DNA from: Chloroflexota bacterium
Lineage (GTDB): Bacteria > Chloroflexota > Anaerolineae > JAAEKA01
Assembly (NCBI GenBank): GCA_029558955.1
Contig: JAKQCW010000021.1
Coordinates: 895-64,894, forward strand
Reading direction: 5' to 3'
Length of the DNA stretch: 64,000 nt
Position numbers and translations under genes: made by a program. Position 1 is the first letter of the stretch. Each line of letters opens with the position of its first letter. The notes beneath the pieces are model-generated. The model was not told the origin of the DNA. It saw only the letters and a program-made list of their open reading frames with translations, and searched no databases. Positions 30,186 to 37,182 of the stretch are shown here, piece by piece.

Positions 30186-30673
30186 GTTGGCTATCGTGGT
30201 ACGTTGATTGGTATCGTCCTTAGTTACGAAACACTGAGCAAGTCATAGACAGGAGGCCAACCTTGGAAGAGCAGCAACGTTCAGCAGCACAGCAAGTAAG
30301 GCAATACCGTCCACATTACCAGGCCGATAGACCGTCGATCTTGATGCGATTGCCGTAGTTAGCGTTGGAGTGACCGTACAGATACCGCAAGTGAAGTGCA
30401 GGTTTGCAGGTTAGGTTCTGCAATACCAATGCGTTAAGACAATGTTCGTCGAAATGTGCCAAACACATCAGATCAGGTTCATTTCGACTACTTCACGAAC
30501 CAGGTTATCCTCCTGAATCGGTGGCAATCATGACCACGTGTATCCCATTTCACGAATACTGAGAGGTGTTGTGTATTGAATCGAACGTGCTACAGCTACA
30601 CAAATCGGAGCGGCTTTGATCATGAGTATGCCAGAGCGTAACACTCTCGCACCAACTAATCAAGGAGACTACC

Positions 30674-31498
30674 ATGACTGCTGGTCAAGAACTCTCGTCT
30701 ATCGATTTTCAATCAATGATTGGCGGTCCGCTGAACGCTGTCATCAAGGCGCAAGCACAATCCGCACAAACATCGGTTGATTTCATTAAGAGTGTTGGTT
30801 TCAATGCTCCGGATGCGAAGACGGATGCGGGCAAACCCACGATGGTCACGTTCGCATACGACAAACTCGTTGAAGTGAGAGGTGAGGATGGGACAATCAC
30901 ACAGCAAGTAACGCCGATGAGCCTGTCGGTGCCGATTCTGACCATGCTTCCTATCCCCTTCATCAGAGTGGACGAAGTGACCATCGATTTCAACGCGAAG
31001 ATCCAGTCTGTTGAGGAGTCGACCACAGCATCATCTTCCGAACTGAGCGCGACTCTTGGAGTTAAGGCAGGATGGGGTCCTGTATCTGCTGAGCTGAAGT
31101 GTAGCTACAGCAACAAGAAATCAACATCCGCCACTTCGAAGACAGAACGAACCTATAGCTTGATCATCCATGTCCGCGCTGTCCAGGATGAACTTCCTGC
31201 TGGACTGGATAGGCTCCTGGGAATCCTCGAGAACAACATCCAAGAGACGCCGTCTTCTCCTCCTCCTCCCTTGAGGGGTGCCTCGTCGAGCTCGAACGCA
31301 AAGATGGCTGCACCTGACAATATCTCCACAGGTACAGATGAAATTGAGGGCGGCAATCTTGAGGCGCGCTTGGTCTTCGACACTGGCTCGGGCGAAGGCA
31401 TTCCAGTACTCGGCATTCAAGTTGAGCACGGACCTGACGCAAGCCTGGAAGCACGCATCGCAGCTCTGGAACAGGCGCAACTGAGGCTAAGATCATAA
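30674..31498 (+). CDS. Island protein A: beta-rich protein of an unrecognised family, paralog of B; S/P-rich linker before a ~50-aa C-terminal tail
   Basis: AAGGAGA RBS, ATG start. Low GC. Shared motifs with B: N-terminal IGGPLNAVIKAQAQSAQTSVDFI versus IGSLMVGLIRARRMADEQTAVLAEYY, and LSVPILTMLPIPFIRVDEVTIDF versus LSVPRIRVPELTVDLPVII. Confidence 0.7.
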   Translation: MTAGQELSSIDFQSMIGGPLNAVIKAQAQSAQTSVDFIKSVGFNAPDAKTDAGKPTMVTFAYDKLVEVRGEDGTITQQVTPMSLSVPILTMLPIPFIRVDEVTIDFNAKIQSVEESTTASSSELSATLGVKAGWGPVSAELKCSYSNKKSTSATSKTERTYSLIIHVRAVQDELPAGLDRLLGILENNIQETPSSPPPPLRGASSSSNAKMAAPDNISTGTDEIEGGNLEARLVFDTGSGEGIPVLGIQVEHGPDASLEARIAALEQAQLRLRS

Positions 31499-31716
31499 GC
31501 TGATTACCGGGACCAAAGACATTGGATCGGCCAACCGCCTTCCGTGTCAGCCATATCAAGTTGCAAGATTGACATGTACCGCGGCTTGGGGCAACTGCAA
31601 TCGAGACCCTTGAACGAGATAGCCTTCAGTTGCGGTACGCAAGTTTGTTAGAAATCGCAGTGAAAGAGATGCCCAAAGCGTCTCTTTCACTGCCTGCAAG
31701 GTCGAGGGCATACTCC

Positions 31717-32394
31717 ATGACAGATCTAGGAGATATCATAGGTTCGTTGATGGTCGGGTTGATTCGTGCCCGTCGTATGGCGGATGAGCAGACGGCTGTA
31801 CTGGCAGAATATTACCGAACCGTCCCTCTGCTTGAAGGGCTATCAGTCCCGCGTATTCGTGTCCCTGAATTGACTGTGGACCTACCTGTAATCATCGAGA
31901 AGTACCAAGAAGGTGAACTCGGAAAGATGGCGGATCCGGCAGAGATTGCGAATGCAGCACAATTACAACTGAAATCGACTGTATCCAGAAACAACATCAC
32001 GGTTGATCCTATTCTGATTGATGTCTTTGTAGATGAGTTAAAGAATCGGCTTACGATAACCCAACAATCTGGTGCATCCATTATGAGAGAAACGGTTGTC
32101 CGCACGGTTCAGGCCGCTTTGGCAGACGCTTTAAGAATGACGAAGACGACTCTAACTGTTTTAGATAAGGAAATCATCGCAAGAGATCTGAGAACCAGTG
32201 TCTCGGCATCAAGCATTGCTGAGGAGCCGGCGACGTCAAGCATTGTGGTTGACGCCATTACGGCTGAGGTGAAAGAGAAGGCGTCAGCCAAAAGTATTGT
32301 GCGTCTGAGAATCACTTTAATGGAAGAAGGTCTCGAGTGGTCAACGCAGGCCAGCGAATCTGGAGGCGTAATACGCACGCTACAGCCGGAGTAA
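31717..32394 (+). CDS. Island protein B: paralog of A (same unrecognised family)
   Basis: ATG at 31717 preceded by GAGGG. The ORF-track start at 31630 is a TTG. Motif correspondence with A as described there. Confidence 0.65.
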   Translation: MTDLGDIIGSLMVGLIRARRMADEQTAVLAEYYRTVPLLEGLSVPRIRVPELTVDLPVIIEKYQEGELGKMADPAEIANAAQLQLKSTVSRNNITVDPILIDVFVDELKNRLTITQQSGASIMRETVVRTVQAALADALRMTKTTLTVLDKEIIARDLRTSVSASSIAEEPATSSIVVDAITAEVKEKASAKSIVRLRITLMEEGLEWSTQASESGGVIRTLQPE

Positions 32395-32411
32395 TCGACG
32401 GAGACATGTAA

Positions 32412-34490: not shown

Positions 34491-36359
34491 ATGAACGAGC
34501 ACAAAATCCCACAGTCCTCAGGTGATACGCAACCTCCTAGCGATATGCCCGCGGGTAGCATGACTGCTCAAGAAAGGCAGCCAAATGTGATAACAGACGA
34601 AATGCCCTCTGGGGCGATGACCAGCACCGCTGTGACCGCGGAGACAGCTTCCCCCACCATGCCTGAGGGAAATCCTGGTGTAGAAGGAGAGATGCCACCG
34701 GACCCCGTTGCTGGATCCCACCAAGAGTTGGCACAGTCGACCAGCGACAAGGAGTATGTTCCACAGGCTGGTGGTCTGATATCGGGTGCTGAAGGCATCG
34801 ATGTAGCGCGTTTGCAACGCTACTTACAGTTGTTCGGTTACACACAAGGACATCATCTGGCAGCGTTCGGCGCGGCAATGGAGGGCCTGGCGCAACCTCC
34901 CGTAGCAGTGGGTGTCTTTGATGACAATACTGCGCAGGCCCTGTTGCGATTTCAGGAGTTCAACGGATTGCCCCCGACAGGCGTGTTGGACGCGACTACC
35001 TTGGAGCTGATGCAGAAGCCGCGCTGCGGCTTTCCGGACGTAGCCGAGTTTGTCCACCAAGGCAGTAAGTGGAGTAAGACTAACCTTACCTATGGCTTTC
35101 AGAACTTCACACCGGATCTCACAGTGGCCCAGGTTCGTAGCGCCATCGCGAGTGCTTTTGGGTTGTGGGCTGCTGTAACCCCTTTGTCCTTCTCGGAGGT
35201 GCCGCTAGGGAATTCCCCCGATATTGTAATCCGTTTCGTTGGCGGCGATCATGGGGACGGCAACCCCTTTGATGGTCCCGGTGGGGTCCTCGCTCATGCG
35301 TATTACCCACCTCCAGGCGGAGGCGCACTCGCAGGAGACACGCACTTCGATGAGACCGAAACTTGGTCCATCAATCTGCCGGCTTCCGGAATCGATCTGA
35401 TTACGGTGGCGGGGCACGAGTTCGGACATGCACTTGGCTTGGCACACAGCAATGTAACTGGTGCCCTGATGTACGCGTACTATGGGGGGCCTCATCGACA
35501 ACTGGAAAGCGACGATATTGCTGGCATCCAGGGCCTTTATGGAAGGAGATCAAGATGGTCAGGTTGGGAGAAACTGGGTGGTGTTCTTACATCAGGCATT
35601 GGCGTCTCCTCCTGGGCGGCTAACCGGCTGGATTGCTTTGTGCGCGGTACTGACAACGCCATGTGGCACAAGTGGTGGAATGGTTCAAACTGGAGTGGTT
35701 GGGAGAACTTGGGCGGCGTGCTCACATCGGCCCCTGCGGCTGTGTCGTGGGGACCGAACCGCATCGACACCTTTGTTCGCGGAACCGACAACGCTATGTG
35801 GCATAAGTGGTGGAATGGCTCAAACTGGAGCGGCTGGGAGAGGCTGGGTGGCGTTCTCACATCAGGAATCGGCGTTTCCTCCTGGGCGGCTAACCGGCTG
35901 GATTGCTTTGTGCGCGGCACTGACAACGCCATGTGGCACAAGTGGTGGAATGGTTCAAACTGGAGTGGTTGGGAGAACTTGGGCGGCGTGCTCACATCGG
36001 CCCCTGCGGCTGTGTCGTGGGGATCGAACCGCATCGACACCTTTGTTCGCGGAACCGACAACGCTATGTGGCATAAGTGGTGGAATGGCTCAAACTGGAG
36101 CGGCTGGGAGAGGCTGGGTGGCGTTCTCACTTCAGGCATTGGCGTCTCCTCCTGGGCGGCTAACCGACTGGATTGCTTTGTGCGCGGCACTGACAACGCC
36201 ATGTGGCATAAGTGGTGGGATGGGGCGGCTTGGCGCGGTTGGGAAAGCCTGGGCGGCGTCCTTACCTCTGAACCGGGTGCCGTCTCCTGGGGTTCGGGTC
36301 GGATCGACACCTTTGTGCGTGGGGCCGATAACGCCATGTGGCACAAATGGTACGCATGA
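34491..36359 (+). CDS. Matrixin (MMP-like, M10) zymogen: N-terminal extension + PG-binding-like prodomain with PRCGFPD cysteine switch + [12 protein letters not shown] catalytic domain + six-bladed fucolectin/tectonin-like beta-propeller
   Basis: AGGAGA RBS. No signal peptide. [12 protein letters not shown]...[34 protein letters not shown] (propeptide). [12 protein letters not shown] plus Met-turn ALMYAYY. Six ~44-aa repeats W.GWE.LGGVLTS...[24 protein letters not shown]. Confidence 0.85.
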
Positions 36360-36398
36360 TGGTCGTTATCTTGATGCTGTCCGGAGAATGCTGCCGGT

Positions 36399-36854
36399 AT
36401 GACTACCGTTCATTCTGATCCGAAGTTGTCGGACGAGATGCTTGGACAGTGGCAAGGAGCAATGCTCGAAGCGCTCCTGACCAGTTCACCTTTGCCCGGT
36501 CACAGCCGCCTGCTTAATCTGGCCGATCTGTCGTCGGTCCTTGGACAGCCGGATGTTGTTGTGTCAAGCGATAACTTGGGTGGGCCGCTCCCTGTGGCGG
36601 GGGTGACTCGGCCGATATACATCCTGTCCGAAGAGGACAGCCTCCAGCGTGCCAAGAATCAAGGTGACTTCAGCTATCTGCACTTCCAGCCACCGCAAAC
36701 CGTCCAGGATGGCGTGCTGCTAACCCTGCAGATTCGCATCGCTCAAGGAGATCCACTCAGACCAACTCTAGGTCTGAGTGGTATACAAGTCACGTTTCAT
36801 CAGGTGGGCACAGGATGGCAAGCAGCGGAACAGATCGCAGAATTCGCAGCCTGA
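36399..36854 (+). CDS. Island protein F: hypothetical
   Basis: 151-aa ORF 40 bp after the protease gene. Followed by a hairpin gccccggg-N17-cccggggc at about 36874-36906. Confidence 0.45.
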   Translation: MTTVHSDPKLSDEMLGQWQGAMLEALLTSSPLPGHSRLLNLADLSSVLGQPDVVVSSDNLGGPLPVAGVTRPIYILSEEDSLQRAKNQGDFSYLHFQPPQTVQDGVLLTLQIRIAQGDPLRPTLGLSGIQVTFHQVGTGWQAAEQIAEFAA

Positions 36855-37182
36855 ATAGAGCTTAGTGAAACCGCACGCCCCGGGTAATCAGCTTGTGATA
36901 GCCCGGGGCGCTGAGCGTGGTGGCTAACTTGATCAGCGACGATCCTCGGCAGCCTCAACCTATCGTCAACTCACGTGACAAAACATGACCCTGTGGTGGA
37001 CCGACTAATAACGTCGTCGACCTGCAAACTAGGATGCTGCACCCATGAAACCTGCCGCCGTGCTCCCAAATTCCACCACCCTGCCCGGCAGAACGACGGT
37101 TCCTTGACAGACGCTTCATGCTATGGCATGATCGCCTTCAGCAACCAATGTTTCGGTTTCTTCTGGAAACAGGAAGGACAGC

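Follow-up and report, generated by a model that had tools for sequence, protein, structure and literature searches.

A three-gene DUF2589 cassette shared by bacteria and archaea and extended with a matrixin zymogen in an Anaerolineae lineage

A 64,000-nucleotide stretch of a metagenome-assembled Anaerolineae (Chloroflexota) genome (assembly GCA_029558955.1, contig JAKQCW010000021.1, positions 895 to 64,894; called the window below, with positions counted from its first letter) carries a low-GC block of six genes, A to F, on the plus strand. An earlier reading, made from the sequence only, had taken the six for one system centred on a matrix metalloproteinase (MMP)-like protease. We find instead that genes A, B and C are a conserved unit that has moved horizontally between bacteria and archaea. 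Genes D and E and the C-terminal tail of A are lineage-specific additions to this A-B-C cassette in one Anaerolineae clade, so the protease is peripheral and not central. We propose, with a probability of about 40%, that A-B-C is an autonomous, non-enzymatic assembly, either oligomeric or membrane-active, with A as its major subunit, and that this lineage added the tail of A, gene D and a latent matrixin-lectin under the control of a SARP-type regulator, perhaps giving proteolytic control. No description of the cassette, its hairpin or its cross-domain conservation was found in the searchable literature, and no known kind of system matches it.

A conserved unit of three genes

A scan of about 186,000 species representatives found A-B-C at 28 species-level loci (labelled L019-L046), all in metagenome-assembled genomes (MAGs) and spread over eight or more phyla, with three archaeal lineages among them. 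Named matches to A and B come from Methanosarcina, Methanoperedens, KSB1, Desulfuromonadaceae, Geobacter, Limnobacter, Pedobacter and others. None of the 28 genomes is a cultured isolate, and many belong to anoxic lineages (Methanoperedens, Geobacter, Ignavibacteria, KSB1). The three genes are colinear and tightly spaced at every locus not interrupted by the end of a contig, and C directly follows B at every locus that extends past B. No homologue of D, E or F lies within 10 kb of the cassette at these 28 loci; another Anaerolinea MAG (L044) has A-B-C alone. Among the A-B-C loci, homologues of D, E, F, the SARP gene and the small open reading frame (ORF) s85 upstream of the block are confined to the window's own clade. 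The sequence-only reading had chosen co-occurrence in other genomes as the test of its six-gene, protease-centred system, and on that test the system fails, as only A, B and C stay together elsewhere.

Gene A (30674-31498, plus strand) consists of a DUF2589 core (30674-31258) and a lineage-specific C-terminal tail (31259-31498). It had been thought to belong to no recognised family, which was mistaken: A matches Pfam DUF2589 (PF11655) at 99.5 bits (cut-off 23) and E 3e-28 over profile positions 2-153 of 154, as do all 45 aligned homologues of A. The core, about 195 residues long, is 75-85% identical to more than 100 protein clusters, including clusters across domains. Because G+C content at third codon positions varies from 0.23 to 0.76 among the loci, partly tracking that of the host, while A stays 75-85% identical, its near-invariance is due to strong purifying selection and not to recent transfer alone. 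A strong Shine-Dalgarno sequence precedes A at every A-B-C locus; no other conserved operator was found upstream of A across these loci.

The predicted structure of A is an N-terminal helix followed by beta-strands, in a low-confidence model (mean predicted local distance difference test, pLDDT, 54). One Ser/Thr-rich segment is highly conserved and modelled with low confidence, its Ser/Thr-rich flanks lying around two short amphipathic beta stretches. In the model this segment is suggestive of an insertion hairpin, but not conclusive. Transmembrane segments were predicted in none of A, B and C. On replicons of cultured bacteria, DUF2589 genes of lower identity (30-37%) are arranged as tandem paralogues, some with unrelated C-terminal extensions, and B-type and C-type partners were not found at those loci. 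The searchable literature on DUF2589 holds two incidental mentions only and assigns no function.

Gene B (31717-32394, plus strand), the partner of A, is almost always exactly 225 residues long; beyond the clade of the window its identity is 43-66%. Its model (pLDDT 75) has a long helix, a strand carrying a motif shared with A, a four-helix insert and C-terminal strands; there is no C-terminal tail. A and B had been described as paralogues. They do have one 31-residue motif in common (BLASTP E 7e-5, reciprocal profile matches at E about 1e-6), but this motif is the whole of their similarity and paralogy is weak, with an hhalign probability of 18-22%. B may be a divergent DUF2589 relative with a four-helix insert: the B of the window does not reach the DUF2589 threshold, with no match, and six of 50 B homologues match weakly (best E 0.008). 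Gene C (32412-32978, plus strand), the third gene of the cassette, encodes a helical protein of about 190 residues that is 43-81% identical among loci. C has no Pfam or PDB relative, and by profile comparison it is not related to A or B. Nothing significant came out of PDB sequence searches, whether single proteins or profiles of A, B, C and D served as queries.

An RNA stem-loop lies in the spacer between A and B (31657-31693, plus strand). It has a folding free energy (dG) of -26.6 kcal/mol and a z-score of -5.5, and none of 200 shuffled sequences was as stable. An equivalent hairpin is present at 25 of the 28 loci, with dG from -13 to -34 kcal/mol, placed 10-20 nt past the stop codon of A and about 20-25 nt before the start of B. 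Its sequence is frequently GCAGGTAAAGGG...CCCTTTACCTGC, while several loci form the same shape from unrelated sequence. Spacer z-scores range from -1.9 to -6.4, and for nine of 14 spacers none of 200 shuffles folded as well. Covariation was assessed by explicit pair counting, as RNAalifold gave no pairs on the raw alignment, in which non-homologous hairpins were misaligned. In the hairpin alignment 84.8% of cells were paired, against 40-53% in slid controls, and 12 of 14 pairs showed double compensatory changes; none of 500 shuffles reached the observed values. Rfam holds no match to this hairpin.

The hairpin has the stem of an intrinsic terminator but not the U-tract, the next 10-12 nt not being U-rich at most loci, and a consensus scan makes no call. 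The Shine-Dalgarno sequence of B lies outside the stem and is left free. Stem-loops after the first cistron set differential expression in the pap pilin operon, the puf operon and the malEFG operon with its repetitive extragenic palindromic (REP) elements. By analogy, the A-B stem-loop is most plausibly a 3' stabiliser or attenuator that lifts the message of A above those of B and C. As a stable hairpin directly after the first gene acts in this way in other operons, A would be the most abundant product.

The cassette holds no recognisable enzyme, NTPase or mobility gene. No recurrent family was found among its neighbours, and the genes on either side often run in the opposite direction. A tblastn search with B gave no match in 50,697 phages or 72,556 plasmids, and no relatives of B or D were found in 2.9 million IMG/VR contigs; the plasmid, phage and IMG/VR searches for A-B-C or D gave only distant DUF2589 genes, on plasmids. 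At L017, TIR-NACHT and CHAT-TIR genes adjoin the cassette. In a Desulfuromonadaceae MAG (L030, also L014; 11344-14587) the cassette is followed on the same strand by genes for a papain-like protease without a signal peptide, an Amidase_2 endolysin-like protein and a holin-like protein with two transmembrane segments, and lexA lies upstream. Either chance or an independent addition of a 'protease plus cell-wall' kind may account for these genes. A DUF2589 pair in Vibrio has a gene for a peptidoglycan-binding protein nearby.

Additions and variation in the Anaerolineae clade

In the window's clade the core of A is followed by a variable Pro/Ser/Thr linker and a conserved module of about 45 residues. 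This tail is found only in lineages that also have D and E, and is not similar to B-F or to the tails of other DUF2589 proteins. Scans of A-F against Pfam, NCBIfam, PADLOC and PHROG gave useful matches only for DUF2589 in A and for the domains of E. As had been proposed, E is the only one of the six with a catalytic domain. Well-known phage families, which the sequence-only reading had named as evidence that would count against it, were not among the matches of A-F: A, B, D and F had no PHROG match at E <=0.1, and C only one at E 0.046.

Gene D (33069-34349, plus strand) belongs to a rare family, with five clusters among 5.8 billion proteins and 47 clusters among 1.84 billion representatives in an exhaustive profile scan; a metagenome scan for D with a narrow alignment added two short contigs. 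The protein starts with a hydrophobic or amphipathic helix (19-residue Kyte-Doolittle hydropathy 2.19 at residues 3-21). We considered a transmembrane anchor and rejected it, because in most relatives the N-terminal helix is amphipathic and charged. The D family is also found without A-B-C. A 38%-identical homologue on a high-GC contig (L001, 18-8063) lies near a Lactamase_B (metallo-beta-lactamase) and trypsin pair, an Amidase_2 gene, a DUF4071-like/TPR ORF and a patatin-like ORF, a neighbourhood with the flavour of a conflict island. A 49%-identical homologue on a low-GC contig (L047, 1999-3117) is followed by a phage-type tyrosine integrase.

Gene E (34491-36359, plus strand) encodes a zymogen-type matrixin without a signal peptide, as the sequence-only reading had recognised. 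A disordered N-terminal region of about 95 residues is followed by a prodomain (PG_binding_1, 51 bits) with the cysteine switch PRCGFPD at residues 177-183 (35019-35039), and by a catalytic domain (Peptidase_M10, 173 bits) with a zinc motif of the HExxHxxGxxH type at residues 309-319 (35415-35447) and the Met-turn ALMY at 325-328. The N-terminus is hydrophilic, and the 19-residue hydropathy maximum (1.27) falls inside the catalytic domain, so by hydropathy there is no secretion signal. The C-terminal part (about 35611-36350) is a putative propeller of the PLL/DUF346 type, matched by Pfam DUF346 in five stretches (88 bits), by a precomputed Beta-prop_PLL assignment and weakly by the NCBIfam beta_propeller_lectin model (44 bits against a cut-off of 200). 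The prodomain also has weak matches to endolysin PHROGs.

The propeller region (35550-36389) is built of 135-nt tandem repeats, and copies 270 nt apart are up to 95% identical, which indicates recent duplication of blades. The 90% protein cluster of E includes variants of 555 and 509 residues, and the sister-lineage contigs all break within these repeats. The number of blades may vary or be mis-assembled.

D and E are linked by a motif, MPEGxPGxEGEMP, which occurs in the C-terminal tail of D (MPEGQPGIEGEMP, 34278-34316) and in the N-terminal region of E (34659-34697). It is kept in the sister lineage and is unique to these two places within the window. Speculatively, it resembles a collagenase-type PxG-hydrophobic cleavage site, though with the proline at P2 and not P3.

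Gene F (36462-36854, plus strand; 130 residues) is an orphan, with no family match in the four libraries. Its start had been placed at 36399. The ATG at 36462 is more likely, as it follows an AAGGAG Shine-Dalgarno sequence, gene callers give 130 residues, and the 130-residue form survives in the deletion variants described below. Apart from this, the six ORFs lie where they had been placed and run in the same direction, and the starts of B (31717) and D (33069) are backed by homologues. The ratio of nonsynonymous to synonymous substitution (dN/dS) for A-E against sister lineages is 0.11-0.22, a sign of purifying selection, and A-E are therefore real genes.

Comparison with near-identical strains shows how the block behaves. 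Against the sister contig L052, positions 27266-30292 are 96.5% identical, and identity then falls at a sharp breakpoint near 30292 to 80-83% through A-E. Synonymous divergence (dS) from L052 is 0.11 for the SARP gene, which lies inside the 96.5%-identical backbone, and 0.46-1.0 for A-E. Four other contigs, of co-occurring strains (L055, L057, L061 and L062), have flanks 98-99.5% identical to the window and lack both 29102-30032 and 30154-36455, that is, most of the SARP gene and all of A-E. The second segment (30154-36455), which comprises a leader and A-E, was delimited by blastn against L055, L061 and L062 and by a junction probe in four contigs. The SARP gene loses its C-terminal two thirds (29102 onward), and a 121-nt remnant of s85 (30033-30153) is fused in frame to the truncated gene, giving a SARP(1-104)-s85 ORF. 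F (99.4% identity, 130 residues), the MNT and HEPN genes and the STAND gene follow directly after this fusion. Microhomology at the deletion junctions is 0-2 nt.

In natural populations A-E and the regulator are thus exchanged and deleted together as one block, which does not include F. The shift in GC content, the allelic breakpoint and the clean deletions together bear out the earlier proposal that the block is a horizontally acquired, discrete accessory unit. Since near-identical strains have acquired, exchanged or lost it, it appears to be a conditionally useful accessory trait, and its physiological role most likely relates to conflict.

The composition of the block is in line with this history. 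In 500-nt windows GC content falls from 0.62-0.72 outside to 0.45-0.60 across about 30.0-37.9 kb, with a mean of 0.46-0.53 for genes A-C against 0.66 for the rest of the window. The low-GC tract that had been described is thus present, but it does not end at 36.9 kb; it reaches about 37.9 kb, through the MNT/HEPN pair. The hairpin said to close the block was located 3' of F at 36877-36909 (plus strand; stem GCCCCGGG...CCCGGGGC, dG -33 kcal/mol, z -3.4). The inner part of this hairpin (36880-36899) forms a 20-nt inverted repeat, 90% complementary, with 31492-31511, across and just past the stop codon of A; by a rough estimate about 0.05 such repeats would be expected in the region by chance. 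An Rfam search across the island gave no match.

The neighbouring genes are as the sequence-only reading had described them. Upstream lie a SARP-type regulator gene (28790-29737, plus strand), syntenic with A in both sister lineages, and two small proteins with signal-type N-termini. The regulator has a BTAD domain (E 7e-23) and a weak Trans_reg_C match (E 0.0024, 18 bits, below the cut-off), and is probably the regulator of the island. The ORF s85 (29928-30185, plus strand; 85 residues), between the SARP gene and the island, is 65% identical in L002; its motif WRGSVEHVxSGxxRYF is kept in sister lineages, and it matches no family. Downstream is the putative toxin-antitoxin pair, an MNT-like ORF (37183-37452) and a HepT/HEPN gene (37449-37919; HepT-like_2, E 3e-23), both on the plus strand with GC of 0.55-0.59. 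The MNT-like ORF encodes 89 residues, overlaps the HEPN gene by 4 nt and carries GS...DLD, with no Pfam match at E <=0.01; a promoter-like site lies upstream of the pair at 37104-37132.

Two STAND genes on the minus strand bracket the region and are part of the backbone. By Pfam the left one (24504-27368), which is present in island-less strains, has helix-turn-helix (HTH), NB-ARC and TPR domains, and the right one (37889-40561) has HTH, AAA/NACHT-type NTPase and TPR domains; they are 56% identical over 535 residues. As DNA they form direct repeats of about 72% identity over 1.1 kb. Recombination between them could remove the intervening 10.5-kb region; a strain with this loss was not observed. 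Contig L055 has about 6.4 kb of extra sequence (13279-19650) downstream of the right STAND gene (window position about 40727), with two ABC_membrane transporter genes and cytochrome bd oxidase subunits I and II. The window holds no tRNA, and neither an integrase nor flanking repeats could be seen at the edges of the island. With the STAND paralogues and the HEPN/MNT pair, the neighbourhood has the conflict flavour that had been ascribed to it.

Possible roles of the cassette

We picture A, B and C as forming a non-enzymatic hetero-oligomeric assembly that is possibly membrane-active. A would be the abundant major subunit, its message raised by the strong Shine-Dalgarno sequence and the hairpin, and its near-invariance would fit surfaces mostly buried in homo- or hetero-oligomeric contacts. 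B may dock through the beta-strand motif common to A and B, and C would be a helical accessory or regulatory subunit. In the Anaerolineae clade the cassette, downstream of the SARP gene, has gained the tail of A, D and the latent E. Because the C-terminal tail of D and the N-terminal region of E share a motif, E may act on or dock to the tails of D and A, and the assembly could then be gated or remodelled by proteolysis in this lineage.

Several observations weigh against this picture. Homology searches connect none of A, B and C with a function, and neither the model of A nor that of B gave an informative fold match. The amphipathic stretches of A are short (about 9-11 residues per arm) and its N-terminal helix is not strongly amphipathic. 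Near-invariance like that of A is unusual for a defence effector, and a toxic A would be dangerous to produce in abundance. The effect of the hairpin on expression is drawn from other operons. Most neighbours of A-B-C are housekeeping genes, and in PADLOC-DB 2.0 the only match was that of D to HEC-02B, at E 0.027, with none for the other five proteins. Because most A-B-C loci have neither a protease nor a tail on A, proteolytic gating cannot be the general mechanism. The linkage of D and E to A-B-C comes from one clade (two sublineages), and a matrixin fused to a lectin more usually acts outside the cell.

Some of these points suit a quite different role, in which A-B-C, like gas-vesicle, R-body or phasin-type operons, makes a polymer or inclusion inside the cell that is purely structural, with a physiological role and with D, E and F as unrelated passengers. 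The extreme cross-domain conservation of A resembles that of self-assembling structural proteins, a hairpin after the first gene combined with a strong Shine-Dalgarno sequence is typical of major-subunit operons, and the cassette has mostly housekeeping neighbours and neither sensor nor enzyme. Other DUF2589 proteins also place varied C-terminal appendages on the same core, and elsewhere occur in tandem arrays. We nevertheless consider this role unlikely, given a sporadic distribution (28 of about 186,000 species representatives, and no cultured isolate), presence or absence and allelic replacement among near-identical strains, some conflict-type neighbourhoods, and a tail on A only where D and E are present. 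The opposite emphasis, with A-B-C as a horizontally mobile effector module of bacteria and archaea, A self-assembling or pore-forming, its dosage set by the hairpin and the module wired in filamentous Anaerolineae to a cytoplasmic matrixin zymogen, seems to us improbable. So does the original proposal of one six-gene system, in which cleavage of A, B and D by E would release a toxic or pore-forming piece, on the pattern of gasdermins. The complete Cys-switch prodomain and missing signal peptide of E, the linker-separated C-terminal module of A in this lineage, the motif common to D and E, the joint inheritance and loss of A-E, and the protease-gated pore formers documented in multicellular bacteria all speak for it. 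However, A-B-C stands at 28 other loci without a homologue of D, E or F, B has no tail, F outlasts the deletion of A-E, and the D family occurs independently of A-B-C; Gasdermin, Trypco and PADLOC matches are missing, and the proteases of the known modules are of the serine or cysteine type and not matrixins.

The usual place of action of MMP prodomains and of PLL-type lectins is outside the cell. This favours an E that acts as an extracellular matrixin-lectin, attacking glycosylated surfaces of other organisms or remodelling sheath or biofilm after release by lysis or a non-classical route, with A-B-C-D as the release or lysis apparatus. The lysis-type genes after A-B-C at L030 and the peptidoglycan-binding protein near the Vibrio DUF2589 pair point the same way. 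Yet these are two or three anecdotal contexts among about 30, most A-B-C loci have no lytic or secreted partner, and A, B and C have no predicted transmembrane segment and no homology to holins or secretion components, which makes this role very unlikely. Least credible, and close to being dismissed, is a block left by a prophage or other mobile element whose structural or lysis genes would be A-F. Low GC, the clean deletion, the integrase beside one D homologue and the weak endolysin matches of the E prodomain would agree with such an origin, but the PHROG, phage, plasmid and IMG/VR searches described above and the edges of the island, with no tRNA, integrase or flanking repeats seen and with 0-2 nt of microhomology, all argue against it.

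A three-gene cassette without an enzyme, whose first protein is 75-85% identical from methanogen-related archaea to many bacterial phyla, must act independently of the host's envelope or physiology and tolerate almost no change in sequence. If A-B-C does form an assembly or a pore, it would be a new cross-domain building block of prokaryotic cell biology or immunity. The Anaerolineae version is a natural experiment, with the same core plus a tail, a rare partner and an MMP-type zymogen without a secretion signal, and with intact, allelic and deleted forms in the wild. If its proteolytic control is real, the protease-effector cell-death modules of multicellular prokaryotes would gain their first member gated by a metalloprotease.

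Comparison with known systems

The proteolytic logic proposed for this lineage is like that of gasdermin, Pepco and EACC1 modules. In Pepco, a small pore-forming protein without enzymatic activity, an N-terminal helix is combined with a beta-barrel; the protein becomes active once its C-terminal tail has been cut off by a neighbouring protease (10.1101/2025.11.14.688446). It is constitutively assembled and occurs in multicellular bacteria, Chloroflexota for example, near STAND NTPases (Evans et al. 2025, 10.1101/2025.11.14.688446; Kaur et al. 2020, PMC7159879). Like Pepco (Trypco1/Trypco2), A is small and non-enzymatic, has a helix followed by beta-strands and a C-terminal tail, and is encoded next to a protease gene and near STAND genes; constitutive assembly with activation by tail removal would also be compatible with an abundant A. 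The differences are considerable. The core of A is about 195 residues long and Pepco 117, the partner is a matrixin where Pepco has a serine or cysteine protease, most A-B-C cassettes have neither protease nor tail, and B and C have no Pepco counterpart. Among 45 members of the A family none matched Trypco at E up to 1, and the single Trypco2 match among 50 members of the B family (E 0.021) we rejected as noise. Removal of the tail of A in the manner of Pepco is possible by analogy, and what is seen of it is the lineage-specific tail.

Bacterial gasdermins with their caspase-like proteases are the model behind the sequence-only reading, in which a cytoplasmic protease likewise frees a pore former of an inhibitory C-terminal piece. 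No homology of that kind was found: neither Pfam nor PADLOC gives a Gasdermin match, the protease is of another class, the fold was not recovered, and the A-B-C core has no protease. The broader idea of a protease-activated effector survives in part. It is possible as an analogy for this lineage only, where A has its tail and D and E their motif; B has no tail to remove.

E itself is readily compared with matrix metalloproteinases (MEROPS M10A) and bacterial matrixins, with which it has in common a three-helix PG_binding_1-type prodomain, the PRCGxPD switch, the HExxHxxGxxH motif and the Met-turn. It differs in having no signal peptide, in its disordered N-terminal region of about 95 residues, and in carrying a putative PLL/DUF346 lectin-type propeller in place of a hemopexin domain.

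The nearest relatives of the cassette itself are the tandem DUF2589 arrays of Archaeoglobus fulgidus (AF0414-AF0417), Fulvitalea and Vibrio replicons. A clearly belongs to this family, and those arrays too consist of adjacent paralogues, sometimes with C-terminal extensions. A-B-C is nevertheless a distinct and far more conserved subfamily, whose B-type and C-type partners are missing from the arrays. In its layout the cassette is closest to the pap pilin, puf and malEFG REP operons, where a stable hairpin also lies just 3' of the first, presumably most abundant, gene and leaves the ribosome-binding site of the next gene free. Unlike the hairpins of those operons, that of A-B-C travels with its cassette across bacteria and archaea, and often keeps its sequence as well as its structure.

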